UHGV virus genome: UHGV-1765841 | Length of the DNA: 13,757 nt | Reading direction: 5' to 3' (one strand) | Source of the DNA: a virus | Shown here: in pieces, positions 1-13,757 of the stretch | Layout of the letters: each line of letters starts with the position of its first letter | Position numbering within the stretch: the first letter of the stretch is position 1 | Position numbers and translations under genes: made by a program | The notes under the pieces: model-generated | Seen by the model: the letters and a program-made list of their open reading frames with translations, nothing else | What the model was told of the DNA's origin: nothing | The model's database searches: none

Positions 1-25
1 CCATTTTCTATAACGGCATAGTTCA

Positions 26-1819
26 TCACGCATACTCCCAAATGATTGCAATACCAGCCATTCCGCTACCTCCGGCACGCTGCTGCGTCGCTCCACCGTA
101 AACACAGGCACCACCGCCTCCACCACCATGGCCATTGGCATTAATACCTTCGCCTACAATGGCTTGTGACCCGGCCCCCGCACCAAGGATTGAATCGCCG
201 CCAGGCCCACCAATCGCCAGACTGCCAGAAAACCGAACGCCTGGTGAGCTATAACCACTTCCAGACCCGATAATATTGGCACCTGTAAATCCCGGCTCAG
301 TATATGCTCCATACGGACCCACAACCCCAGGAGTAGTACCTTCAGCAAGAACATTCCCACCAAGACCACCTTTGGCAATTATGGTATTACCGAAAGAGGT
401 TGTTCCCCCGGGAGCACCAACCGACGCACTAACACCAATACCGCCATAACCGATAGTCACTGTCGTTACGGCTGGATTATCCACGCGAGCTTTAACATAC
501 TCCCCGGACATTCCCCCGCCACCACAAGCCGCATTATTGGGATAACCGACCTGACAACCACCACCGGCACCACCACCACCAACGATTTCAACAATAATAA
601 ATTTTGTGCCTTGCGTCGGAACGTATGTACCTGAACTTTTAAACACCTGACACTTTATCAGTCTTCCGGAGCCATCGCCCAAACCAAGGTAATCAAGAAC
701 CCCCTGTGTGCTTGTCTTGCCAATAATGGCGCGTCCAACACTTGTCAGTGCGGTTAGCGCAGCACGATCTGCCCCTGTAAAATAAGGGAGTTTATCTGCT
801 GATGTAGCAAGTCCTGCCAGCGCCGTCAGGGTGGCATCCTTCGGTTGCTTACCCGCAAGCGCGTTAGTCATGGTTGTAGCAAAATTCGGGTCGTTACCCA
901 GCGCCGCCGCCAGCTCGTTCAGCGTGTTCAGTGCTTCAGGTGACGAGTCTACAAGTGCGGTAATCGCGGCCATAACATAAGCCGTGCTTGCGATCTGAGT
1001 ATTATTAGTACCCTTTGGCGCTGTTGGCGTTGTTGGCGTTCCGGTCAGTGCCGGGCTGTTTAATGGCGCTTTTTTATTCACTTCATCCATTACCGTCTTA
1101 ACAGCTTTTGGCGTTGCTGCCAGCGTTTCAGACGTGCTGTTTGTGGCGCTACTGAGTCGAACAAGGCCTTTTCGTGCCGTAGTCGCATCCTGAGCGGTAT
1201 ATTTTCCGTTAGCCAGGTCATATGCAGCCTTAACCGCTTTCGGTGTTGCGGCCAGTGTTTCAGATGTGCTGTTGGTTGCACTGCTTAACTGAGTAAAACC
1301 TTTTGCGGTCAGCGAGGCGTCCGGGTGACGTCGTGACTTTTCGTGCTCAGAAATTTTGTCATCCACATATTTACGTGTTGCCAGTACCACAGCCGGGTCG
1401 ATTTTCAGCGTGATGGCTTCGGTGTTCGTGACAACCAGAATCATGCGGATAGTCTGGGTGCGGCCACTGCCTTCCTGTAACTGCGGTTTGTACGTTTCCG
1501 GACAGTTCGCTACCGCAATGAGTACGCCTTCATCATCATAAAGCCCAATCTCACGTATCCAGAATCCGCCCTCGTTCTCAGGGATGATTTGCTCCGCAAT
1601 AATCTGGCTCTGGTTGTTCGGATCAACGCTCAGAAGATTCAGCGGCGCGATGCGTTTCTGGTTAATCAGCTTTGTCTGTGCCGGGTCTGGTGTCGGTAAG
1701 ACACCATTCGCATCACCAACGGCCATTTGCGTCAGATTCAGCTTACTGCCGAGCATCGTCGCGTTAGCCAGCCGTGCTGCGCCCTGATTAGTCAGAATGG
1801 CGTAGTATTTCACTGTCAT
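26..1819 (-). CDS. H: Tail fibre protein, P2 gpH-like; conserved N-terminal tail-collar/shaft region (about residues 1-380) fused to a divergent glycine-rich C-terminal region
   Basis: 597-aa ORF with ATG at 1819 overlapping the gpI stop (ATGA). N-terminal part matches P2 gpH as I recall it, including the duplicated LSSATNSTSETLAATPKAVK motif. C-terminal ~215 aa is Gly-rich (GGGGAGGG, HGGGGGG runs) and unlike P2 gpH. Stop TGA at 26-28. Confidence 0.9.
   Translation of the reverse strand: MTVKYYAILTNQGAARLANATMLGSKLNLTQMAVGDANGVLPTPDPAQTKLINQKRIAPLNLLSVDPNNQSQIIAEQIIPENEGGFWIREIGLYDDEGVLIAVANCPETYKPQLQEGSGRTQTIRMILVVTNTEAITLKIDPAVVLATRKYVDDKISEHEKSRRHPDASLTAKGFTQLSSATNSTSETLAATPKAVKAAYDLANGKYTAQDATTARKGLVRLSSATNSTSETLAATPKAVKTVMDEVNKKAPLNSPALTGTPTTPTAPKGTNNTQIASTAYVMAAITALVDSSPEALNTLNELAAALGNDPNFATTMTNALAGKQPKDATLTALAGLATSADKLPYFTGADRAALTALTSVGRAIIGKTSTQGVLDYLGLGDGSGRLIKCQVFKSSGTYVPTQGTKFIIVEIVGGGGAGGGCQVGYPNNAACGGGGMSGEYVKARVDNPAVTTVTIGYGGIGVSASVGAPGGTTSFGNTIIAKGGLGGNVLAEGTTPGVVGPYGAYTEPGFTGANIIGSGSGYSSPGVRFSGSLAIGGPGGDSILGAGAGSQAIVGEGINANGHGGGGGGACVYGGATQQRAGGSGMAGIAIIWEYA
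1097..1288 (-). repeat. Imperfect direct repeat inside H encoding the duplicated 20-aa motif LSSATNSTSETLAATPKAVK
   Basis: Two about 60-nt copies (about 1097-1156 and 1229-1288), period 132 nt, roughly 85 percent identical at nucleotide level; both encode the identical 20-aa peptide (H residues 178-197 and 222-241). Confidence 0.8.
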
Positions 1820-2427
1820 GCGTTTACTCTCAGGTTATCAATTAAATGAATGGCCGAGGCCGGGAAATAATCCCCTCCGACAATAATGGCCTCCGGGGTG
1901 TAGGGATAAACCGTCAGGGCGTCACCGTGATAGCATCCCGCACCGGCAAAAATGTTGCCGGTTGTACTTAAACTGATAGCCAGTCCCGTAAGATGGCGGC
2001 TCGCCGGTTTTGCATCAGCAACGAGGCGCTCCAGCTCCTGATACATTTCTTCGGTAATACCCTGCTCAAGCACGCCAACAACGATACGGAACGTCCCCGG
2101 CTCCTCGTTGAGCTGCCACCACTCCCTCACCTCAATCAGATAGCCGAGCGGCTCCACCACACGCCGGATTGCACCTATAGTGCCTTTATGACAGTGAATG
2201 AAATACGCATCGCGGATAACAACGCGTTTTGTCGCTTCCGGCCACTTATCATCCCAGCGGTCAACCGAAAATGACCACGCCAGCCACGGCAGCAGATTTG
2301 CCGGGCAGGTGTCCGGGTTCCACAGCTCACGAATACTGACCGGCGTTTTTTCAATTTCCGCACAGGCTTTTGCGGCGGCAACTTCAAGCGGTGATGAGCC
2401 GGTCGGCAGCAGTCGCGAATCACTCAT
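1816..2427 (-). CDS. I: Baseplate assembly protein gpI (P2 I-like), with a C-terminal region longer than and different from P2 gpI
   Basis: 203-aa ORF, ATG at 2427 with GGAGG Shine-Dalgarno about 7 nt upstream. N-terminus MSDSRLLPTGSSPLEVAAAKACAEIEKTPVSIRELWNPDT matches P2 gpI. Overlaps the J stop by 8 nt. Position between J and H as in P2. Confidence 0.9.
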   Translation of the reverse strand: MSDSRLLPTGSSPLEVAAAKACAEIEKTPVSIRELWNPDTCPANLLPWLAWSFSVDRWDDKWPEATKRVVIRDAYFIHCHKGTIGAIRRVVEPLGYLIEVREWWQLNEEPGTFRIVVGVLEQGITEEMYQELERLVADAKPASRHLTGLAISLSTTGNIFAGAGCYHGDALTVYPYTPEAIIVGGDYFPASAIHLIDNLRVNA

Positions 2428-3328
2428 CCGAGCCTCCGGTCACAACGCTGTATTCGGTACAGAAAGACGCCTGCGTATTGTTGAGCACGATGTCGGCCAG
2501 TGGTGCAGCCAGTTCGACACGCTGCACGCCTTCCACATGCAAAGCGGCATAAATGGCAGACAGACGGATGTCGCGCCCCAGCCGGTGCTGTGCCGTGATG
2601 TACGCTTCCAGTTTTTTCACGGCAGCAGCGCGGATGGGTTCGCTTTCGGGACCAGGGTAAAGGTAAAGCGTGGCGTTTATCTGGTATTCAACGATGGCGG
2701 CAGACTGCACGGTCACGCGGTCGGCCACCGGCCTGACGTCCTCGCCATTAAGGGCGTTACGCACCGCCGCCAGCAGGTCTTCGGATGCCACACCGTTATT
2801 TTCGCGAGACAGCACGGAGATGGTGACGCAGGCCGGAGAAGGGCTGGTGACAGAGATATCTGCGACACGCCCGTCGGCACTGCGACCATGATACTGATAG
2901 GCACCCACCGACCCGGCGACGCTTAAACCTTCAAACGCCTGCTGAATACGCAGACGATAATCGGTGTCAGATTCCATCACTGCCGGTGTCGGCGGGATGG
3001 TCGAATCATCTGCCGGGGTGATAGTCAGGCGCGTGGTGTTGTAATTGGCACCAATCACATCAAGGTCATTACCGGCGGCACAGGCCAGCATCACCGCCCG
3101 TGCGGCCTCATTCACACGCTGACGCCAGATAAGCTCACGATAAGCATTTTCCTCCAGCAGTTTGACGAGAGGCTCAGATTCCAGCGTCAGGGTACGGGCG
3201 ACCGCCTCCTGCTGGTCTTCCGGGTAAAGGGAAATCAGTGTCGCCTTGCGTTCAGCGAGAATGGTTTCAAAGTCCAGCTCCTCGACCACATCCGGTGCGG
3301 GTAGCTGGTTCAGGTCGATAATCGGCAT
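2420..3328 (-). CDS. J: Baseplate assembly protein gpJ (baseplate wedge, gp6-like)
   Basis: 302-aa ORF, same length as P2 gpJ, ATG at 3328; recognised by sequence similarity to P2 J; gene order W-J-I. Confidence 0.93.
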   Translation of the reverse strand: MPIIDLNQLPAPDVVEELDFETILAERKATLISLYPEDQQEAVARTLTLESEPLVKLLEENAYRELIWRQRVNEAARAVMLACAAGNDLDVIGANYNTTRLTITPADDSTIPPTPAVMESDTDYRLRIQQAFEGLSVAGSVGAYQYHGRSADGRVADISVTSPSPACVTISVLSRENNGVASEDLLAAVRNALNGEDVRPVADRVTVQSAAIVEYQINATLYLYPGPESEPIRAAAVKKLEAYITAQHRLGRDIRLSAIYAALHVEGVQRVELAAPLADIVLNNTQASFCTEYSVVTGGSDE

Positions 3329-3332
3329 GGTT

Positions 3333-3680
3333 TCAACTCACAGGGATGGTTAATGAAAGTGGCTGGCCGGTGTCGTTGTGCTGGCCGGTTAACGTGACCG
3401 TCATTCGCCCGTCAAAACTGCGCTCAGTGGTGACGGATGACAGGGTGACGCGGGGTTCCCATTTCAGCACCGCCATGTAACAGGCGACCTTAATCTGCAA
3501 CTCAAGCGCCGGGGTCTGCGGCTGGTCAATCATTGACGCCAGCAATGAGCCGTAATCACGACGCATCACCCGAGAGCCGACTGGTGTGCGCAGGATATCG
3601 CCGATACTCTGGCTGATATGCTCAAGGTCAGTGACAGTCAGGCCATCACTGCGATTCATTCCGAGATAACGCGCTGTCAT
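3333..3680 (-). CDS. W: Baseplate assembly protein gpW (T4 gp25-like baseplate wedge subunit)
   Basis: 115-aa ORF identical in length and near-identical in sequence to P2 gpW; ATG at 3680 overlaps the V stop (ATGA); GGGAG Shine-Dalgarno upstream. Confidence 0.93.
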   Translation of the reverse strand: MTARYLGMNRSDGLTVTDLEHISQSIGDILRTPVGSRVMRRDYGSLLASMIDQPQTPALELQIKVACYMAVLKWEPRVTLSSVTTERSFDGRMTVTLTGQHNDTGQPLSLTIPVS

Positions 3681-4312
3681 AGAGGACTCCCGGTTGTGCC
3701 GCCGCTGTCGCCGGGGTGTTTATGGGTATGCAGTACCTTCCCGTTTGATGAGAGTTCACCGCCGGTATGTTTAATGTTGCCGCGCATCGTCCCGCCCTTC
3801 TGCACTTCCAGCGTGCCGGTAATCAGCCTGTTGGTGCAGACCACCTCTGGTGTGTCCAGGGTGACGCGGGTTGATGCTTTCACCATGACCACCGGCACCG
3901 TGGCGGTAACAGAATCAGAAGCCGTCACGCTGGCCGTTTTAATTCCGCTTACCGTGAGTGCACTGGTTTCGGGTTCATACTCAATCACCGCCCCGTCAGG
4001 GAAACGGATATGCAGGGCATCCGCCGACGCAGACGGCGCGGGGTTATCACCGGAATAAATCCCCGGCAGAACGAACGCCGTGTCGAGTTCACCGCCCACG
4101 GCCAGAATCAGAACCTGTTCCCCCACGGAAGGCGCCCACCATGTGCGCGAACGTCCGGCGCGATGGGTCAGCCACTGAAGCCAGTCGGTGCACATGCCGC
4201 CGGTCTGCACACGGCAGCGACCGGCGTTAAGGTCGGTTTCGACGACAAGGCCGGTGCGGATCATGTTGCGCAGTGCGCGCGCGAGTTCCTGAATATTTGC
4301 GAGAGTGTTCAT
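3677..4312 (-). CDS. V: Baseplate hub/spike protein gpV
   Basis: 211-aa ORF, same length and near-identical N-terminus (MNTLANIQELARALRNMIRTG) to P2 gpV; first gene of the V-W-J-I-H cluster, preceded by a 66-bp intergenic gap. Confidence 0.93.
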   Translation of the reverse strand: MNTLANIQELARALRNMIRTGLVVETDLNAGRCRVQTGGMCTDWLQWLTHRAGRSRTWWAPSVGEQVLILAVGGELDTAFVLPGIYSGDNPAPSASADALHIRFPDGAVIEYEPETSALTVSGIKTASVTASDSVTATVPVVMVKASTRVTLDTPEVVCTNRLITGTLEVQKGGTMRGNIKHTGGELSSNGKVLHTHKHPGDSGGTTGSPL

Positions 4313-4378
4313 AACGGGAAGGATGCCGCCGGGTCATACCGGCGGCAATGTGACGATGAGGTGTCGGGAATGGCACAA
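4313..4378 (-). promoter_or_regulatory. Putative late promoter region upstream of V (P_V-equivalent)
   Basis: 66-bp gap between S and V, where P2 has a late promoter for the V-W-J-I-H-G operon. On the - strand the gap contains TGTGCCATTCCCGACACC (plus-strand 4360-4377), a partial TGT...ACA dyad. Promoter elements not confidently assigned. Confidence 0.35.
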
Positions 4379-4831
4379 CTAACGATCGAGGTGAGTCAGG
4401 ATAATCTCTTCAATCATCTGCACATCCTCACCGGTAAAGCCGAGCAGAGGGCGCGCCGGATAATCAATTTTCTTACCGTCTTTCCGGGTTTCTTCCGACA
4501 GACCAAACTGATGCACACTGGCGATTTTCGGTGACTTCCCGCCGTAAAATTCCATTGATGCCTGTTCCGGGCTGGCGCGGATATGCAAAAAACGACTGGT
4601 GATAAGTTTCGCAAACATTTTTCGCTTAACACGACCAGTCTTTTTTCTGGCGCTCTGCTGCTGGCGTGGCGCGTAGGGTGTGCCGTCCGGGGCTTTCTGA
4701 GCCATCACCCGACGCTGCTGACTCTGCCGCAGACGTTTCGCCAGTTCGGCACTCAGTCGCCGACGCCCTGACGGTGACAGCGACTCAATCAGTCCGGTCA
4801 GCCGGTCTTCAAAACGCTTAAACTCATTCAT
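4379..4831 (-). CDS. S: Tail completion protein gpS (virion morphogenesis)
   Basis: 150-aa ORF matching P2 gpS in length and sequence; ATG at 4831; overlaps the R stop by 8 nt. Confidence 0.9.
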   Translation of the reverse strand: MNEFKRFEDRLTGLIESLSPSGRRRLSAELAKRLRQSQQRRVMAQKAPDGTPYAPRQQQSARKKTGRVKRKMFAKLITSRFLHIRASPEQASMEFYGGKSPKIASVHQFGLSEETRKDGKKIDYPARPLLGFTGEDVQMIEEIILTHLDR

Positions 4832-5291
4832 CCCACTTACTCACCAGTTCGCCATTGATATAAAGCTCCATCGGGCGGGTGACCGGCTCCGGCGGCGTGG
4901 GTTCCGGGATATTCTTCACATGCAGCGCGCCGTCCACCTCACTGACCAGCGTGCGCTCGGTCAGCATCAGGCTGATGCTGATATCAAAGCTGCTGTCATT
5001 GTTGATGTCTGCATAAAACGTGAAGCCCTTTTTCTGGCCTTCGTCGGTGGTCATGATGTCGGGCTGATTTTCCCGCAGCCAAGCCAGCACCGGCACAATG
5101 AGCAGGTCAAAATCACCGGTAAAGTCGGTCACAATCACATTGAGCGTGTAACGCTTTTCGAACGACAACGACGTCGCCAGCGTGGAGGCAATACTCCCGT
5201 TATCCACGAATATCCGCAGCATCTCGGGACTGGTTTTCAGCACCGTGACGGCATCAGTCAGCGCCCTGCGCAGGCTGTCGGGTTTGAGCAT
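4824..5291 (-). CDS. R: Tail completion protein gpR
   Basis: 155-aa ORF matching P2 gpR; ATG at 5291 with AGGACGA Shine-Dalgarno-like sequence upstream; its start lies within the 3' end of lysC. Confidence 0.9.
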   Translation of the reverse strand: MLKPDSLRRALTDAVTVLKTSPEMLRIFVDNGSIASTLATSLSFEKRYTLNVIVTDFTGDFDLLIVPVLAWLRENQPDIMTTDEGQKKGFTFYADINNDSSFDISISLMLTERTLVSEVDGALHVKNIPEPTPPEPVTRPMELYINGELVSKWDE

Positions 5292-5544
5292 TGTTTTCGT
5301 CCTGACAGTGTTTAATCATTTTTACCTGGCTGGCACAGCGTGCCAGCGCGTTCTCAAGCTGCCGGATACCGGCACTTAAATCGCCGTTCGTCTGCGGGTC
5401 ACTGCCCGGCATCGGGCAAAGGCTCACTTTCGGGCAGGCGTTGGCGACAATCACTGGCGTCAGTGCAGGCCGGACGCTGGTGCAACCGGCGCACAGCATC
5501 AGGCAGGTCAGCACCGTACCAGCGGCGAAAATCTTCGTTTTCAT
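5254..5544 (-). CDS. lysC: Outer-membrane lipoprotein spanin subunit (o-spanin, LysC/Rz1-like)
   Basis: Six-frame ORF 5254-5661 trimmed to the internal ATG at 5544 (GAGG 9 nt upstream), giving 96 aa (MKTKIFAAGTVLTCLMLCAGCTSV...) with signal peptide, lipobox-like LCAGC, and Pro-rich periplasmic part. Starts inside lysB in another frame and extends past its stop, the overlapped spanin architecture of P2. Confidence 0.75.
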   Translation of the reverse strand: MKTKIFAAGTVLTCLMLCAGCTSVRPALTPVIVANACPKVSLCPMPGSDPQTNGDLSAGIRQLENALARCASQVKMIKHCQDENNAQTRQPAQGAD

Positions 5545-5824
5545 TGAGTAACCTCGTGATGGTTTTCTCGCGCTGTGCTTCACGCTTCGCGGCGTTCTCC
5601 AGCTCCTGACGCAGTGCCACCTGCGCCAGCTCGTTTTTGTCTGCCCTGGTAAGGGCAACATGAAGCTGGTTTTTCAGCATGGTGATGGTCGTCTGCTGCC
5701 CGCTGGCGACGCTGTTCGCCCTGTCCAGTGAGGTGCGCAGGCTGGCGTTTTCATGCTTCGCCAGAAACAGACCGACCACCGCCAGTGATAACAACACAAC
5801 CAGCACAATCATCAGCTTTGACAT
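5399..5824 (-). CDS. lysB: Inner-membrane spanin subunit (i-spanin, LysB/Rz-like)
   Basis: 141-aa ORF with N-terminal transmembrane segment (MSKLMIVLVVLLSLAVVGLFLA) followed by a charged coiled-coil-like periplasmic domain; position after lysA as in P2. Confidence 0.85.
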   Translation of the reverse strand: MSKLMIVLVVLLSLAVVGLFLAKHENASLRTSLDRANSVASGQQTTITMLKNQLHVALTRADKNELAQVALRQELENAAKREAQREKTITRLLNENEDFRRWYGADLPDAVRRLHQRPACTDASDCRQRLPESEPLPDAGQ

Positions 5825-6237
5825 GGTTCCCGCCCCTCAAAACGCTGACGACAGGCCGTGCGTATCAACCGGAAGAACACCGACGCCACGAGGTAAATCA
5901 GCGCGGTAAAAATCCACCCGGCAGCGACCAGCGAGATAAACGTCGCCACCATCACCACCAGAGCCGCCGCCCGTCTGCGCCACGGCACCGGCTGCAAAAA
6001 CAGCGACGCGACAATCTTCACGGCCAGCGATTCCGGTGGCAGCTCCCGCCCGTAGCGTTCCAGCACATACTCAGTGGCATACACGCCGACACCACCGGCA
6101 ACCACACAGATAACCGTCGCCAGAATCGCCCAGGCGGCGACAAAATTGACGGCCACGCTCTGCGGGTAAATCAGGGACAGTGCCAGCATCAGCGCCAGCG
6201 ACACATTCAGCATCAGTGAAAGGGATAATTTCTTCAT
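5812..6237 (-). CDS. lysA: Lysis regulatory membrane protein LysA (multi-pass membrane protein, lysis timing)
   Basis: 141-aa strongly hydrophobic ORF with several predicted TM segments; same size and position as P2 lysA; ATG at 6237 with GGAG Shine-Dalgarno. Confidence 0.85.
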   Translation of the reverse strand: MKKLSLSLMLNVSLALMLALSLIYPQSVAVNFVAAWAILATVICVVAGGVGVYATEYVLERYGRELPPESLAVKIVASLFLQPVPWRRRAAALVVMVATFISLVAAGWIFTALIYLVASVFFRLIRTACRQRFEGREPCQS

Positions 6238-6251
6238 GGTGTTTACTCCGT

Positions 6252-6749
6252 TTAAGCTGGTACACCGCCGGCGGTACGCCAGACGGTGACCAGTTTTTCC
6301 AGTGAATGCTCACGCTGACCGTAACCGGCACCCGGCAGGGACGCCCAGATATTGCGACAGCGTGAAATGGCGCGCTCAATGCTTCCCGCCCGGATGTCAT
6401 CCAGTGCACCGCGTTCGCGGATCAACTGAATGGCGAGCCTGTCCTGTGACAACGGACTGAAATCCGGCAGGGCAAGCTGTTTGCGGTAGTGCGGCCAGAA
6501 CAGGTAAAGCTGCTGATAGCGACCGGAGGCCGTGGATTTTTCACCGCGACGGTTAAACACCTTCGCCGGTCGGCCATGTGCGAACGGGTGGTCACTGTAG
6601 TCGGTGAAGATTTCCGGCTTTCCGTCCAGTCCGGTGACTATCACGTCATAGCCCCGGTTTTTCGTCAGCGGATGATTCGCCGTCCCTTCGGACACGGCCA
6701 GCATGTCGAGAAAGGCAGCGATATTCTGATGCGTGTTAATTACCGGCAT
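6252..6749 (-). CDS. K: Endolysin gpK, lambda R-like lytic transglycosylase
   Basis: 165-aa ORF; N-terminal FLDMLAVSEGT motif with the catalytic Glu context of lambda R-type transglycosylases, and C-terminal IWASLPGAGYGQ motif; ATG at 6749 overlaps the Y stop (TAATG). Confidence 0.93.
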   Translation of the reverse strand: MPVINTHQNIAAFLDMLAVSEGTANHPLTKNRGYDVIVTGLDGKPEIFTDYSDHPFAHGRPAKVFNRRGEKSTASGRYQQLYLFWPHYRKQLALPDFSPLSQDRLAIQLIRERGALDDIRAGSIERAISRCRNIWASLPGAGYGQREHSLEKLVTVWRTAGGVPA

Positions 6750-7030
6750 TACGGTTTCCCCCTGCCCTTAAAGCGGCGCTGAATGGCAATCTCAATTACC
6801 TGATAACCGGCGATACCCAGCATGGAGCCGATGCCGCACACCGCAGGCAGTGACAGGTCAGGAAACTGCACCAGAACAACACCGGCAACCATCGAGACAA
6901 AACCACCGAGCAACATGCGCCCGATAAAAAGACGCGGGGTGATGGGTTCACCACCGGCAAGCACCTTGCCGACAACAATCAGCACCCCAATCATGAAAAG
7001 CGACAGGACGCTTTTTTCTTCTGCTGTCAT
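6749..7030 (-). CDS. Y: Holin gpY
   Basis: 93-aa ORF with hydrophobic TM segments and a charged C-terminus (RRFKGRGKP); immediately upstream of the endolysin; GGGAG Shine-Dalgarno upstream of ATG 7030. Confidence 0.9.
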   Translation of the reverse strand: MTAEEKSVLSLFMIGVLIVVGKVLAGGEPITPRLFIGRMLLGGFVSMVAGVVLVQFPDLSLPAVCGIGSMLGIAGYQVIEIAIQRRFKGRGKP

Positions 7031-7033
7031 GCG

Positions 7034-7237
7034 TTACTCCCACAGATTGACAGTTTCAGCCACGGGCGCGGTCTGAACGTCGGGCAGTTCGACGGCGGTG
7101 CCGTGTGGCAGCACCGCCCCCAGTTCAGCCAGTCCCGGATTTGCGGCGAGCACAGTCTCAACCACGCCTTCAGTGCGCCCGTAATACCGGACACAAATGG
7201 CGTCGAGCGTGTCGCCCTGTAGCGCAAAGGTCTTCAT
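7034..7237 (-). CDS. X: Tail protein gpX, LysM-like domain protein
   Basis: Six-frame ORF 7034-7306 trimmed to ATG at 7237, which overlaps the L stop (TGATG), giving 67 aa (MKTFALQGDTLDAICVRYYG...), the size of P2 gpX; LysM-like motif. Confidence 0.8.
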   Translation of the reverse strand: MKTFALQGDTLDAICVRYYGRTEGVVETVLAANPGLAELGAVLPHGTAVELPDVQTAPVAETVNLWE

Positions 7238-7746
7238 CAGATTTGACTCACGATGCAGCGCGGCTTGTCCTGGATGCGCGCCACTGCCCAGCGCATATCC
7301 CGCCACAGCTCATCAATGGTGCTGTCAATGCTGTCGGCCTTCTTGTCGCCTTTCGCACTGGCATCCACACCGCGATAACGTTCATAAAGTGACGCGGTCG
7401 CCATCGCACACACGGCGCGCTCGTAGTAAAAAACTTTGATGCTTTCACCGTCGATATCGTCTGCCGGGACGTCAGCCAGACGCGTAAAACCGGCGGCAAT
7501 TTTCTGTTCGCGGTACTCGTACAGCTCCGCATTCGTCTCCGCCATGCCTGACTTGATGGCCTCACGCAGACGGGCGGGGGCGACGGTCTGCTCAAGGCGC
7601 ATACGTTCCCGGACGCGCTTCGGGTCGATATCGGGAAAAAAGAACGTGTTTTTAATCACCGGCTCGTCGCCTGCCGGTTGCGGGATGACCACCGTACCCT
7701 CACCGGACACGGGAGCCTCCTTTCGCGGAATAATCAGCGTCATCAT
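7237..7746 (-). CDS. L: Head completion/stabilisation protein gpL
   Basis: Six-frame ORF begins at a GTG at 7806; trimmed to the tandem ATGs at 7746/7743 (GAGG 7 nt upstream), giving 169 aa (MMTLIIPRKEAPVSGEG...), matching P2 gpL. Confidence 0.88.
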   Translation of the reverse strand: MMTLIIPRKEAPVSGEGTVVIPQPAGDEPVIKNTFFFPDIDPKRVRERMRLEQTVAPARLREAIKSGMAETNAELYEYREQKIAAGFTRLADVPADDIDGESIKVFYYERAVCAMATASLYERYRGVDASAKGDKKADSIDSTIDELWRDMRWAVARIQDKPRCIVSQI

Positions 7747-7845
7747 GACTACCTCAGAAAAGTCGGGCGGTGGACGCCGGTACAGTGTCAGGTGATTCAC
7801 CCACACTGACCGGCGTGCCGCCCTGGCGCGGGGCGCATTCGGTTG

Positions 7846-8589
7846 TTAACTGGCTTTCTTTTTCGGGCGTCCACGTTTTGCCGGTGTCACGCTCCGGGTC
7901 TTACGCGGGGCGCGGGTGGCCGCTTTGGGCTGCGGCTCCGGCTTCGGTTTCAGCTCCCGCTCCAGTCGTTCAATCTCTTTTTTGACACCTGCCTGACAGT
8001 CGAGCTGTGTCGCACGTTGCAGGTGAGCCAGCGCACCGGCGGCATCACCACCATCACGCAGAAGCAGACCGGTGATTTTGTGCAGCTTTGCGCGCACTTC
8101 ATCAGGCATGTCAGCCGTGGCGGTCAGTTCAAGGGTCTCCGTCAGCAGGCGGGTATCCACAGACTCACCGGCAGCGTGGGCGCGCATGGCCGCTAGCGCC
8201 ACCTCCTCGGTGAACATGTATGGCGGGGTGCGGCGGTGTTTACCCGGCATGGTCAGACCGTACTTCAGGGCATAACGGGCAATCTCCAGCGCACCGCTAA
8301 TATCGCCGGTATCCAGACGCCACAGCATGACCGTCATCAGAATGTCATCCTGTGCACCTTTGCCCTGCTCCAGCACGCCGTTCACCCACGGCAACCAGAA
8401 CGGCAGCAGTTCGCGTTTTTTCGCGGCCTTCAGCTCTTTTGAATAAATCGCTTTCAGTGTGCGCTGGTCTGCGGCCAGCTTGACCAGCATCTGCTCATAG
8501 ACAGTTGCATGTCGCAGCGGGGCGGCGTCCCGCTGCGCGGTCATCGCTGCCGAGACCCGCATCATGTGGCGCTGTGCGGGACTCGTCAT
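7846..8589 (-). CDS. M: Terminase small (endonuclease) subunit gpM
   Basis: 247-aa ORF matching P2 gpM in size; GGGAG Shine-Dalgarno upstream of ATG 8589; strongly basic C-terminal tail (TRAPRKTRSVTPAKRGRPKKKAS). Confidence 0.92.
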   Translation of the reverse strand: MTSPAQRHMMRVSAAMTAQRDAAPLRHATVYEQMLVKLAADQRTLKAIYSKELKAAKKRELLPFWLPWVNGVLEQGKGAQDDILMTVMLWRLDTGDISGALEIARYALKYGLTMPGKHRRTPPYMFTEEVALAAMRAHAAGESVDTRLLTETLELTATADMPDEVRAKLHKITGLLLRDGGDAAGALAHLQRATQLDCQAGVKKEIERLERELKPKPEPQPKAATRAPRKTRSVTPAKRGRPKKKAS

Positions 8590-8592
8590 CGG

Positions 8593-9666
8593 TTACGCTC
8601 CCGGCTCTGCGGTCACTTTAGTCGGTGTGGAGAAGTCACCGACCTTAATTTTTTCCACCAGACAACCGGCGGCGTAGTCTTCCACCACGTAATCAATGTT
8701 CATTGACTCGTAGTTCTCCACGCGGTCGAGTTTCGGGTTTTCCACAATCACGCGGCGATGGCTGTCATCCATGTAGTAGATGGACAGGTTTTCCAGCTTT
8801 GTGATGAGCATCGCATCCGCCGGGAAGTACGGGACGCGTACCGCCGGCAGGTTACCGATGCGTTTCTGGCTGATGATGACGTCAGCGGCCAGCATTTCGC
8901 TGTTGTCCTGCTCCTTATTGACGATGGGGAAATACTTGTCCGCCAGTAGCTGACGCCCCACAATCACCACAAGGTCAGGGTCTTCCTGATACCACGGCTC
9001 AATCAGGTTATTGGTCGCATCCATCACCAGTGCATCAAGGCTGGCATAATCACCGCCCTTGCCCACGCGGATAACCTCAGAGGTGGTGCGGCCTTCCTCG
9101 TCAGTGACCTTGCTCATCACGCGCGCCGGGGCTTCATTGCGGTATTTCTGCAGCCAGCCGACCGCCACATCCTGCAGCATCGGATTGCTGCTGCGGTCAG
9201 AGGTTTCGGCACGCTTCACGCCGTTAAAACCGGCCATGATGAAATCAAGGGACTGGCGTTTGATAATGGCGTTACGGATACGGAGCTGGAAATCCTGATA
9301 ACGCGCCCACAGGTCAAGCGTTTTGTAGCGGATATAAAAATCGAAGTTAATCTGGTCGCATTCGTACTTGTTTGACGCCAGCTTCGAGAAGTCCTTCGGC
9401 TGACGCTCGGTGCCACCGGCGGTGTCGGTGGTGCTGGCGATGGAGCCGGTGACACCGATACCAATTTTTTCCCCTTTCATTTCGCTGACCGGCACAATAT
9501 TGATGCGGGTCAGAAAATCAGAGGACTCCTGCATGGTGTTCATCAGGGTCTGGGTGACCGACGGTTCAACGGTGAATTTTTTCGACACATCACCGGCGTC
9601 GATGCCGTTCAGTTCGGCAACACGGGACAGGTAGGCATTAAATTTAAAGCGGGTTTCCTGGCGCAT
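8593..9666 (-). CDS. N: Major capsid protein gpN
   Basis: 357-aa ORF, same length and near-identical sequence to the P2 gpN precursor; AGGAAA Shine-Dalgarno 7 nt upstream of ATG 9666. Confidence 0.95.
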   Translation of the reverse strand: MRQETRFKFNAYLSRVAELNGIDAGDVSKKFTVEPSVTQTLMNTMQESSDFLTRINIVPVSEMKGEKIGIGVTGSIASTTDTAGGTERQPKDFSKLASNKYECDQINFDFYIRYKTLDLWARYQDFQLRIRNAIIKRQSLDFIMAGFNGVKRAETSDRSSNPMLQDVAVGWLQKYRNEAPARVMSKVTDEEGRTTSEVIRVGKGGDYASLDALVMDATNNLIEPWYQEDPDLVVIVGRQLLADKYFPIVNKEQDNSEMLAADVIISQKRIGNLPAVRVPYFPADAMLITKLENLSIYYMDDSHRRVIVENPKLDRVENYESMNIDYVVEDYAAGCLVEKIKVGDFSTPTKVTAEPGA

Positions 9667-9724
9667 AGTTTTTCCTGAAATTAAGGGTTAATCGTGAAGG
9701 TTTTCCCGGACTGACTGACGCCGG

Positions 9725-10579
9725 TCAGCAGTTCGTCATCAGGGCGTCACCGCCACCACCGGTGGCCTTGCTGCGGCGCTGCTGGGTCAGACTTTCGGTG
9801 TGGTCGAGACTGTTTTTCAGGCGGGTGAATGCCTGACTGGTTTCATCCGCCCTGTCAGTCACATCCTGCTTAAGTGCGGAAAAGGCGTTTTCCATCTCAG
9901 CGAGGCGCTGCTCAGTGGCGCTCAGTTTTTCCTGCACATGTTCAGCGACAGCGGTCACCGCTTCATGCACGTCATTCAGACGGGCGTCATCGCTGGCCTG
10001 TTTGCGGCCAAAAATGGATTTCACCTTTTCGGTCAGGGCGGTGAACACGGTTTCAGGCAGGTCTTCAAATTCCAGCTCAACAGGCGTTGCCACTGAAATC
10101 AGGTTTTCAGGGCTTAATTTGAAGCGGTTCAGAGGGTTGTGTTTTGCCGTGCGGCAGAATTCCAGGTATTCCGTGCCGAGGCTTGCCGGGTCATCGGTGA
10201 CGGCCAGACCCACCAGATAACATTTGCCGGTGTTGGCAAAGTTCGGCTGAATTTCCATTGAGGTGTAGACCTTCTGCGCGGCCTTGTTCATCGCGATAAG
10301 GTCATCGGTCGGGGTGATTTTCGCAAACAGCGCCCATTTGCCTTTCAGCGCCGAATCATCGTCAATCTTTTCGGCCTTCAGTTCGACCACATCGCCATAA
10401 CGCTTAAAAATACCGTCAGGCAGGATGCCGCGCAGATGTTCCAGGTTAATGCGGCAACCATAGACTCGCGGGTCAAAGGTTTCGGCCATTTCCTGAATAT
10501 CCTGCGCACTGATGACACGCCCGTCACAGGTGTCACCCTCAACGCCGATACGAAAGAATTTTGAGACTTTTTTTGCCAT
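9725..10579 (-). CDS. O: Capsid scaffolding protein gpO (scaffold/protease)
   Basis: Six-frame ORF 9725-10645 trimmed to ATG at 10579 (AGGA upstream), giving 284 aa (MAKKVSKFFRIGVEGDTCDGR...), the size of P2 gpO. Confidence 0.9.
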   Translation of the reverse strand: MAKKVSKFFRIGVEGDTCDGRVISAQDIQEMAETFDPRVYGCRINLEHLRGILPDGIFKRYGDVVELKAEKIDDDSALKGKWALFAKITPTDDLIAMNKAAQKVYTSMEIQPNFANTGKCYLVGLAVTDDPASLGTEYLEFCRTAKHNPLNRFKLSPENLISVATPVELEFEDLPETVFTALTEKVKSIFGRKQASDDARLNDVHEAVTAVAEHVQEKLSATEQRLAEMENAFSALKQDVTDRADETSQAFTRLKNSLDHTESLTQQRRSKATGGGGDALMTNC

Positions 10580-10752: not shown

Positions 10753-12525
10753 ATGACCATCACCACAGACACCACTCTTTTACACGACCCGCGTCGTCAG
10801 GCGGCGCTGCTGTACTGGCAGGGATTTTCCGTGCCGCAGATTGCCGCCATGTTGCAGATGAAACGCCCGACGGTGCAGAGCTGGAAACAGCGCGACGGCT
10901 GGGACAGCGTTGCCCCCATCAGCCGTGTCGAAATGAGCCTGGAAGCGCGGCTGACCCAGCTCATCATCAAACCGCAGAAAACTGGCGGTGACTTCAAGGA
11001 AATTGACCTGCTGGGACGCCAGATTGAACGACTGGCACGGGTAAATCGCTACAGCCAGACCGGCAACGAGGCAGACCTTAATCCGAACGTCGCTAACCGC
11101 AACAAAGGCGGGCGGCGCAAACCGAAAAAGAATTTTTTCAGTGACGAAGCCATCGAAAAGCTGGAGCAGATTTTCTTTGAGCAGTCTTTCGACTATCAGT
11201 TGCACTGGTATCGCGCCGGGCTTGAGCACCGCATCCGCGATATCCTGAAATCCCGCCAGATTGGCGCGACATTTTATTTTTCCCGCGAGGCGCTGCTGCG
11301 CGCCCTGAAAACCGGTCATAACCAGATTTTTCTGTCGGCCAGTAAAACGCAGGCGTATGTGTTCCGCGAATACATCATCGCCTTTGCCCGTCTGGTTGAC
11401 GTTGACCTGACCGGTGACCCGATTGTCCTGGGCAATAACGGCGCAAAACTGATTTTTCTCGGCACCAACTCCAACACCGCGCAGAGCCATAACGGCGACC
11501 TGTACGTCGACGAGATTTTCTGGATCCCGAATTTTCAGGTACTGCGTAAGGTGGCATCAGGTATGGCCTCACAGAGTCACCTGCGTTCGACCTATTTCTC
11601 CACCCCGTCCACGCTGGCGCACGACGCCTACCCGTTCTGGTCGGGTGAACTGTATAACCGGGGACGCGCCAGCGCCGCCGAACGCGTGGAAATCGACGTC
11701 AGTCATAACGCCCTTGCCGGTGGGCTTCTCTGTGCGGACGGCCAGTGGCGACAGATTGTCACCATTGAGGACGCCCTGAAAGGTGGCTGCACGCTGTTCG
11801 ACATTGAGCAGCTCAAACGCGAAAACAGCGCCGACGATTTTAAAAACCTGTTCATGTGTGAATTTGTTGACGACAAGGCGTCGGTGTTCCCGTTCGAGGA
11901 GCTGCAACGCTGCATGGTCGACACGCTGGAAGAATGGGAAGACTATGCACCCTTTGCCGCCAATCCGTTCGGCTCCCGCCCGGTATGGATTGGTTACGAC
12001 CCGTCACACCGTGGCGACAGTGCCGGATGCGTGGTGCTGGCACCGCCGGTGGTGGCCGGTGGCAAATTCAGAATACTTGAGCGTCACCAGTGGAAAGGCA
12101 TGGACTTTGCCACTCAGGCTGAATCCATCCGCAAACTCACCGAAAAATACAACGTCGAATACATCGGTATTGATGCCACTGGCCTCGGTGTCGGCGTGTT
12201 CCAGCTCGTGCGCTCGTTCTATCCCGCCGCGCGCGACATCCGCTACACGCCGGAAATGAAAACCGCAATGGTGCTCAAGGCAAAAGACGTCATCCGCCGT
12301 GGCTGTCTGGAATATGACGTCAGCGCCACCGACATCACCAGCTCGTTTATGGCTATCCGCAAGACCATGACCAGCAGCGGACGCAGCGCCACCTATGAGG
12401 CCAGCCGCAGCGAGGAAGCCAGCCACGCCGACCTCGCCTGGGCAACCATGCACGCCCTGTTAAATGAGCCACTCACCGCCGGTATCAGCACTCCGCTGAC
12501 ATCCACCATTCTGGAGTTTTACTGA
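10753..12525 (+). CDS. P: Terminase large (ATPase) subunit gpP
   Basis: Six-frame ORF starts at TTG 10723 without a Shine-Dalgarno; trimmed to ATG 10753 (GAGG at 10744-10747), giving 590 aa (MTITTDTTLLHDP...), the size of P2 gpP. Stop TGA overlaps the Q start (TGATG). Confidence 0.93.
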   Translation: MTITTDTTLLHDPRRQAALLYWQGFSVPQIAAMLQMKRPTVQSWKQRDGWDSVAPISRVEMSLEARLTQLIIKPQKTGGDFKEIDLLGRQIERLARVNRYSQTGNEADLNPNVANRNKGGRRKPKKNFFSDEAIEKLEQIFFEQSFDYQLHWYRAGLEHRIRDILKSRQIGATFYFSREALLRALKTGHNQIFLSASKTQAYVFREYIIAFARLVDVDLTGDPIVLGNNGAKLIFLGTNSNTAQSHNGDLYVDEIFWIPNFQVLRKVASGMASQSHLRSTYFSTPSTLAHDAYPFWSGELYNRGRASAAERVEIDVSHNALAGGLLCADGQWRQIVTIEDALKGGCTLFDIEQLKRENSADDFKNLFMCEFVDDKASVFPFEELQRCMVDTLEEWEDYAPFAANPFGSRPVWIGYDPSHRGDSAGCVVLAPPVVAGGKFRILERHQWKGMDFATQAESIRKLTEKYNVEYIGIDATGLGVGVFQLVRSFYPAARDIRYTPEMKTAMVLKAKDVIRRGCLEYDVSATDITSSFMAIRKTMTSSGRSATYEASRSEEASHADLAWATMHALLNEPLTAGISTPLTSTILEFY

Positions 12526-13559
12526 TGAGCAAGAAAAAAGGGAAAACACCGCGACCTGCGGCAAAAACAATCACCGCCAGCGCCCCGAAAATGGAGGCAT
12601 TCACCTTTGGCGAGCCGGTGCCGGTACTCGACCGCCGTGACATTCTGGATTACGTCGAGTGCATCAGTAACGGCAGATGGTATGAGCCGCCGGTCAGCTT
12701 TACCGGTCTGGCAAAAAGCCTGCGTGCTGCCGTGCATCACAGCTCACCGATTTACGTCAAACGTAATATTCTGGCTTCAACGTTTATCCCGCACCCGTGG
12801 CTTTCCCAGCAGGATTTCAGCCGCTTTGTGCTGGATTTTCTGGTATTCGGTAATGCGTTTCTGGAAAAGCGTTACAGCACCACCGGTAAGGTCATCAGAC
12901 TGGAAACCTCACCGGCCAAATATACCCGTCGTGGTGTGGAGGAGGATGTTTACTGGTGGGTGCCGTCCTTCAACGAGCCGACAGCCTTCGCGCCCGGCTC
13001 CGTGTTTCACCTGCTGGAGCCGGATATTAATCAGGAGCTGTACGGCCTGCCGGAATATCTCAGCGCCCTTAACTCTGCCTGGCTGAATGAGTCGGCCACG
13101 CTGTTCCGCCGCAAGTATTACGAAAACGGCGCACATGCCGGATACATCATGTACGTCACCGATGCCGTGCAGGATCGCAACGATATCGAAATGCTCCGCG
13201 AAAACATGGTTAAGTCGAAAGGCCGCAACAACTTTAAAAATCTGTTTCTCTATGCCCCACAGGGGAAAGCCGACGGCATTAAAATTATCCCCCTCAGTGA
13301 AGTGGCGACGAAGGACGATTTTTTTAATATCAAAAAAGCCAGCGCCGCTGACCTGCTGGACGCGCACCGCATCCCCTTTCAGTTGATGGGGGGCAAGCCG
13401 GAGAACGTCGGGTCGCTGGGTGATATTGAGAAAGTGGCAAAGGTCTTTGTCCGCAATGAGCTTATCCCGTTACAGGACAGGATCCGCGAGATAAACGGCT
13501 GGCTCGGTCAGGAGGTCATCCGCTTTAAAAACTACTCACTGGACACTGACAACGGCTGA
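12525..13559 (+). CDS. Q: Portal (capsid vertex) protein gpQ
   Basis: 344-aa ORF, same length as P2 gpQ; ATG 12525 overlaps the P stop; followed by an intrinsic terminator and the cos site, as at the P2 left end. Confidence 0.93.
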   Translation: MSKKKGKTPRPAAKTITASAPKMEAFTFGEPVPVLDRRDILDYVECISNGRWYEPPVSFTGLAKSLRAAVHHSSPIYVKRNILASTFIPHPWLSQQDFSRFVLDFLVFGNAFLEKRYSTTGKVIRLETSPAKYTRRGVEEDVYWWVPSFNEPTAFAPGSVFHLLEPDINQELYGLPEYLSALNSAWLNESATLFRRKYYENGAHAGYIMYVTDAVQDRNDIEMLRENMVKSKGRNNFKNLFLYAPQGKADGIKIIPLSEVATKDDFFNIKKASAADLLDAHRIPFQLMGGKPENVGSLGDIEKVAKVFVRNELIPLQDRIREINGWLGQEVIRFKNYSLDTDNG

Positions 13560-13564
13560 ACATC

Positions 13565-13586
13565 GCCGCCTGCGGGCGGCTTTTTT
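13565..13586 (+). terminator. Rho-independent terminator downstream of Q
   Basis: GC stem gccgcc (13565-13570), loop tgcg, ggcggc (13575-13580), followed directly by TTTTTT (13581-13586); 6 nt after the Q stop codon. Confidence 0.65.
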
Positions 13587-13728
13587 ACAACCCGCCATCA
13601 CGCCCTCACACGCTCACCACCGCACAAAACAGCCCGCATACACACCAACGCCCCGGCGAACAATCTAAACGCCATCACGACGCGCTCAGACGCTGAAAAA
13701 ATAAAATCAGCACCACCGCCAGCGCGCA

Positions 13729-13747
13729 GTGCTTTCCCCGCCTCGCC
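13729..13747. other. cos site: 19-nt cohesive-end sequence of P2-type phages (joined form)
   Basis: gtgctttccccgcctcgcc at 13729-13747 is the exact reverse complement of GGCGAGGCGGGGAAAGCAC, the P2 cohesive end as I recall it. Position about 170 bp beyond the Q stop and orientation match the P2 left end. Sequence continues on both sides, so the ends are joined here. Confidence 0.7.
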
Positions 13748-13757
13748 CGCCCGCTTC

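Follow-up and report, generated by a model that had tools for sequence, protein, structure and literature searches.

What state of the DNA is captured when the cohesive-end sequence of a P2-like phage is found with continuous sequence on both of its sides, and what is to be expected in the neighbouring DNA into which it leads? The locus described here raises both questions at once, as such a sequence lies only 10 nt from the end of a 13,757-base stretch of viral DNA (genome UHGV-1765841; hereafter ‘the window’, by which the whole stretch analysed is meant). For the first question, a most likely answer can be drawn from the relatives of the window in sequence collections and from the biology of P2; for the second, only the relatives are informative.

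A joined P2-type cos site

The 19-mer that forms the cohesive ends of P2, GGCGAGGCGGGGAAAGCAC, occurs a single time in the window, on the minus strand at 13729..13747 and with 0 mismatches, while the chance expectation for a match with up to three mismatches is 0.01 (200 dinucleotide shuffles). The 19-nt match to P2 on which the original prediction was founded held up in database comparison, which gave identity to both annotated ends of the P2 RefSeq record (NC_001895): bases 1..19, labelled ‘cosL; left cohesive end’, have the same letters, and cosR, at 33575..33593, is the same 19-mer. The P2 right arm ends in gaagcgggcg just before cosR, and the last 10 nt of the window (13748..13757, cgcccgcttc) are the exact reverse complement of these bases; the sequence therefore runs through cos, and the cos is joined. 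In the linear records of P2, L-413C, Wphi, fiAA91-ss, PSP3, P24A7b and others, moreover, the first base aligns to window position 13747, and both the order Q, tQ, cos and the spacing match P2, the cos site lying ~170 nt downstream of the portal gene Q. A joined cos had been proposed about 10 bp from the window end, with the + strand leaving the window into the right-end region of the phage; the coordinates turn out to be exact, 10 nt of right arm follow the 19-mer, and the direction of exit is confirmed by these same 10 nt.

The window contains several of the marks of a P2-type cos, namely GGCGAGGCGGGGAAAGCAC itself, a site downstream of Q and tQ at the junction of the two arms, and genes for gpP and gpM on the same element. 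It is with high confidence that 13729..13747 can be called the joined, probably intact cos of a P2-like (Peduovirus) phage, in DNA that is most likely an integrated prophage. The 19 nt, which match P2 cosL and cosR exactly and are identical to the 19-mer of P4, are here uncut and double-stranded, and are those that would become the 5'-protruding cohesive ends. Cutting by terminase at this place, with 19-nt 5' overhangs, would be expected from the identity with P2 and from the starts of the linear genomes. Set beside P2 itself, the window has the same cohesive end, the same visible 10 nt of right arm and the same position after Q and tQ; it differs in that the P2 record is the linear virion form, whereas the cos of the window is joined.

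Sequence surrounding the cos site

How much of the sequence on either side of the 19-mer is constrained? In an alignment of the window and six of its close relatives with P2 (made circular in silico), P4, two Klebsiella phages and a 186-like Yersinia phage, the core common to all consists of GCGCGC, two purines, the 19-mer and YGCCCGCTT. In the window, the invariant GCGCGC block lies at 13722..13727 on the left-arm side of cos, one base away from the 19-mer. On the other side, the first 10 nt of the phage right arm (13748..13757, minus strand) begin a conserved block of ~36 nt that in relatives reads ACGGGGCGGTTTTAATGCA... and runs on to ...GGTTTTAATGCA in all aligned sequences but one Klebsiella phage (...GGAATTAATGCA). 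Only these first 10 of the ~36 bases are inside the window. They and GCGCGC are identical to P2, and cgcccgcttc is kept in all 23 IMG/VR relatives and in P4, with one or two changes in the 186-like and Klebsiella phages. The cos of P4 (NC_001609), which the terminase of its helper cuts as well, has the same 19-mer, GCGCGC on one side and a CGCCCGCTT...GGGGCGGTTTTAATGCA block on the other. It adjoins, however, gop (left end) and psu (right end), whereas the cos of the window is attached to P2 structural genes, and the P4 left-arm spacer is unrelated to that of the window, GCGCGC being the only left-arm sequence common to both.

The left arm has a non-coding spacer of about 145 nt between Q and cos (13586..13728). 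Together with the 19-mer (window 13586..13747) it is identical at 162 of 162 positions to the left end of fiAA91-ss (KF322032), a Cdt-V-converting P2-like phage with an annotated cosL, yet the structural genes of fiAA91-ss and of the O157:H43 T22 prophage (KC618326) are only ~97% identical to those of the window. Identity of the spacer to most other P2-like phages is 90-99%; P2 itself differs from the window at ~9% of the spacer positions, and distant relatives are ~80% identical over 13670/13678..13757. Its last ~40-50 nt (from ~13678-13686) are kept also in 186-like and Klebsiella P2-like phages. The spacer presumably helps terminase binding or DNA bending. A scan of the whole window against Rfam at the gathering threshold, the Q-cos spacer included, gave no structured RNA.

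Upstream of the spacer, the terminator scan identified tQ, the strong intrinsic terminator of the P-Q late operon, at 13565..13580 on the plus strand (GCCGCCTGCGGGCGGC followed by T6); in the P2 record the homologous site is labelled ‘tQ; putative rho-independent terminator for P operon’. As a predicted terminator, tQ would keep late transcription from running on into cos and the cargo behind it. An inverted repeat across the right cos boundary, forming a hairpin with a T-run, was also considered as a terminator or structural signal; in four of five variants its folding energy was not better than that of shuffled sequences, so no function is attached to it.

Two observations concern the very end of the window. 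It stops just before the first position that is polymorphic among relatives, in which CGCCCGCTTC is followed by AC, AT or GT, and in ON470613.1, a partial phage record of 14.8 kb, the first base is only 2 nt past the equivalent of the window end. This has the look of an assembly that broke where two co-resident P2-like elements branch, in which case the window may itself be the whole contig and not be extendable. Further out on the right arm, 40-140 nt beyond cos, repeats of an ATGCA/TGCAT motif (e.g. CGCATGCAnnnnnATGCAC) occur in P2 (L003), in P4 and in two further loci (L033 and L034). Their distance from cos is similar in P2, P4, the 186-like phage and a Klebsiella phage despite variable surroundings, and they could be candidate protein-binding sites at the edge of the cargo hotspot discussed below, outside the window.

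The late-gene arm and its terminase

To what kind of DNA is this cos attached? The ORF map and megablast searches against phage records and complete E. coli genomes identify the 13,757 bases as the late-gene arm of a P2-like phage (Peduovirus), in the reverse of the standard P2 map. The cos match, the right-arm bases and the starts of the linear records combine to define the window as the P2 late-gene block read towards an uncut cos. Gene assignments were checked one by one against the P2 RefSeq record and against an E. coli prophage of 97.5% identity that PGAP had annotated. On the plus strand, Q (12525..13559) encodes a 344-aa portal protein, a homologue of P2 Q and of the product that PGAP names ‘phage portal protein’ in relatives, and P (10753..12525) encodes the large (ATPase) subunit of terminase, identical to P2 gpP at 589 of 590 residues, its start codon having been checked. 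The minus strand carries O, N, M, L, X, Y, K, lysA, lysB/lysC, R, S, V, W, J, I and H in P2 order (26..10579; ORF list, PGAP and P2 record), among them M at 7846..8589, the small/endonuclease subunit of terminase (243/247 identical to P2 gpM), and H at 26..1819, beyond which the start of G occupies 1..26. 

The S-V intergenic gap measures only 67 nt (4313..4378), so an insert of the Orf30 type is absent; P2 has the non-essential Orf30 at this place (P2 9439..10224). A search for hidden cargo inside the window gave neither a compositional island (GC 0.52-0.62 throughout) nor a tandem repeat, and inspection of its full length, which reaches 10 nt beyond cos, made no att site, host gene or cargo visible. 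The segments 601-1200 and 1201-1800 agree exactly in base composition (156 G, 157 C, 114 A and 173 T each) but are unrelated in sequence; their dinucleotide counts differ, and the agreement was judged a coincidence.

In P2, once the phage has been induced and has replicated, the terminase (gpM with gpP) recognises cos on phage DNA in the form of monomeric circles, nicks the two strands 19 nt apart, so creating the 5' cohesive ends of virion DNA, and packages the genome; after injection, the ends re-anneal and are ligated. By analogy, the terminase acting on the cos of the window would be the gpP and gpM that the window itself encodes, both of them intact and, at 98-99.8% identity, essentially P2's own. 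These subunits would recognise the joined cos on circular monomers following induction and replication, and their staggered nicks, 19 nt apart, would yield the 5' cohesive ends of the virion DNA, which upon injection would re-anneal and be ligated. A P4 satellite, having the same 19-mer and right-arm block, would be packaged by the same enzyme, given that the core cos is common to both; P4 is indeed packaged by the P2 terminase owing to this common core, according to the statement in PMC9122126 that cites Ziermann and Calendar 1990.

Integrated prophage or free phage DNA?

The original prediction allowed three states of the DNA, a prophage, a circular form or a concatemer junction, and the joined cos on which all three depend stood the test. 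Which of them is to be preferred? The att site by which P2 integrates is distant from cos, so that in a lysogen cos stays uncut inside the prophage, and for this reason an integrated prophage is the most likely state. The prophages that were inspected in E. coli have this arrangement: cos was internal to the prophage in four of four, with the layout FI ... G-H ... Q-cos-cargo-A. One of them (L027) could be read to the prophage edge, giving pflB-ogr-D-U-T-E-FII-FI ... G-H ... Q-cos-cargo-A, and the remaining three agree with this order from the tape-measure gene on. Less likely is a circular or permuted phage assembly, and a concatemer is the least likely of the three.

Of 5,426 complete E. coli genomes, 2,820 contain at least a part of the block and 1,460 of these no less than 80% of the window, nearly always in the chromosome; the closest complete E. 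coli genome is 97.6% identical, and loci from IMG/VR and metagenomes are 97-98.5% identical. An exact 118-mer across cos recurs in 23 IMG/VR loci (97-98.5% identical elsewhere) and has no match in GTDB species-representative genomes, and a window-specific 194-mer recurs in four metagenome loci (97.5-98.5% identical). Over long stretches, no match in these collections or among the phage records exceeds 98.5% identity. 

Could the window nevertheless derive from a circular replicative form, or from a circularly permuted assembly of reads from virions or induced phage, its cos having been closed by the cell or by the assembler? Several phage records are of this kind, among them STYP1, GMS190, pro483 and vB_YpM_50, permuted sequences that have cos inside and in which the matches continue through query position 1258, and the start of ON470613.1, so near the equivalent of the window end, suggests that such break points arise in phage assemblies. 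The content of the window would, however, be alike for a circle and for a prophage, and most occurrences of the block are chromosomal prophages, with 4,356 places in chromosomes of complete E. coli genomes versus 68 in plasmids. This origin is accordingly unlikely, if still the strongest competitor of the integrated prophage. 

Less probable by a good margin, and very unlikely in our view, is an origin of the cos from the remnant of a defective prophage, or from a P4-like satellite with only the cos core in common with P2. Defective P2-like remnants are common in E. coli, and partial matches to the block are many in complete genomes; P4, for its part, has the identical 19-mer and flanks. Against a remnant or satellite stands the fact that 13.7 kb of P2 late genes, without interruption and with every ORF at full length, adjoin the cos directly, and that its left-arm spacer belongs to the P2 type and not to that of P4. 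For the P4-like satellite taken alone, the gene content of the window rules it out.

A concatemer junction of replicating phage DNA, such as provides the cos of lambda, is formally compatible with a joined cos, although sequence assembly cannot separate it from a circle. P2 packages from monomeric circles, and this is what makes a concatemer junction the least likely of the three states: the rolling circle nicked by the P2 A protein gives monomeric circles, and the substrate of the terminase is covalently closed monomers. On these general grounds a concatemer is extremely improbable for a P2-like phage. A chance GC-rich 19-mer without function, finally, can be discarded outright in view of the expectation of 0.01 at three mismatches and of a position, flanks and neighbours that are as in P2. 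The integrated prophage remains the most likely state.

Cargo beyond cos

The gpQ-cos-gpA interval is a hotspot of anti-phage cargo, for which Rousset et al. (2022, PMC9122126) give 1,650 arrangements among 18,150 E. coli loci, and the gpQ-gpA hotspot has been described also in PMC13586616. The window ends at its cos-side edge, with the contents of the hotspot outside. What occupies it had therefore to be read from relatives, 20 of which had enough sequence past cos, supplemented by three more annotated E. coli prophages. Beyond cos, ~36 nt are conserved in all relatives, after which the sequences are unrelated. In the 20 loci, 765 to 3,665 nt separate cos from gene A, or from orf91 in those that have it, and the contents are of at least 14 different kinds.

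P2 has old and tin at this place. A PDC-S06 ATPase occurs in five loci (L004, L005, L011, L021 and L024), with a different subtype in L027, and Lamassu LmuABC occurs twice (L009 and L026). Single loci carry Hp1-3 (L007), SIR2-HerA (L012), an 864-aa SIR2 protein (L018), PDC-M48AB (L023), ShosTA (L029), PDC-S39 / DUF7380 (L031) and the cytolethal distending toxin genes cdtABC (L010), while two loci have almost nothing (L008 and L019), gene A being reached there within ~0.8 kb. Further contents, seen in the annotated E. coli prophages, are a reverse transcriptase together with an HTH protein, and cassettes of ParB-N, hypothetical and Dcm proteins. In two other loci the proteins are without a match: the cassette of L015 (140..1006 beyond cos) encodes one 288-aa protein and that of L016 (130..1625 beyond cos) two predicted membrane proteins of 223 and 251 aa, none of them with a PADLOC or Pfam match, and both cassettes are candidates for uncharacterised hotspot cargo.

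At the gpQ-gpA hotspot, then, P2-like phages swap lysogenic-conversion cassettes, which are mostly anti-phage systems and sometimes toxins. The earlier description of the old/tin neighbourhood as variable for anti-phage cargo agrees with the 20 relatives and with PMC9122126 as far as variability goes; ‘anti-phage’ applies only in part, since one relative (L010) has cdtABC. 

Can the cargo of the window's own neighbour be predicted from the closest left arm? The last 300 nt of the window recur without a single difference in three relatives (L010, L014 and L023), of which L010 carries cdtABC and L023 PDC-M48 (the sequence of L014 is short past cos). The same left arm thus goes with different cargo in L010 and L023 and does not predict it, so this approach was rejected; more generally, relatives whose left arm is identical over 118-300 nt carry many different cassettes at the hotspot. 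That the DNA directly beyond 13757 carries a cos-adjacent cassette matching no described defence or virulence system is improbable, and it would be a property of the neighbour, on which the window is silent.

The P2 cos, its occurrence in P4 too and the hotspot beside it have all been described before, and no further element or variant comes from the window. The cos site of the window serves rather as an orientation mark, which identifies the window as the late-gene arm of a P2-like phage and gives the direction of the cos-proximal hotspot; the place of possible cargo is the first 1-4 kb past 13757, outside the window.

The opposite flank

Is cargo to be expected on the other side as well? It had been anticipated that G and the Z/fun-type variable locus lie beyond H, and the P2 record does place G, followed by fun(Z), after H; the Z/fun locus has been cited as variable (PMC13586616). 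In four inspected E. coli prophage relatives, the gap between G and FI is short and holds pseudogene fragments only, which derive from a second tail-fibre assembly gene or from genes for an HTH protein or a recombinase. These scraps lie at 8479..8593 in L027, 4719..4964 in L038, 4158..4590 in L039 and 4253..4498 in L040. Their appearance is that of a decayed invertible segment for tail fibres, not of defence cargo. As the gap contains pseudogene scraps only, cargo is not to be expected there by default and is much less assured than beside cos. The idea that the window sits between two places where novel cargo would be expected can therefore be kept for the cos side, on the strength of the 20 relatives; the G-FI side, with nothing but scraps in four relatives, does not bear it out.

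The tail-fibre gene H

The flank just described borders on H, whose receptor-binding end (3' part of the gene, minus strand, window 1..840) comprises a glycine-rich domain unlike that of P2 H. Among the 5,426 complete E. coli genomes, window 1..1100 is covered to at least 80% in a single one (NZ_AP027886.1, 99.6% identical), the rest of the window being ~97.5% identical to the same genome; other matches to 1..1100 are partial (at most 76% of the query, at ~80-95% identity) and fall in tail-fibre genes of other prophages. H is a typical mosaic tail fibre, though a rare allele. In the best E. coli relative (L027) the gene has 132 extra nucleotides and encodes 641 aa, versus 597 aa in the window. 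Window 1097..1273 aligns twice to L027 10097..10405, and SSATNSTSETLAATPKAVK occurs twice in the H of the window, which suggests that a repeat unit in the fibre shaft may have been duplicated or deleted between the two.
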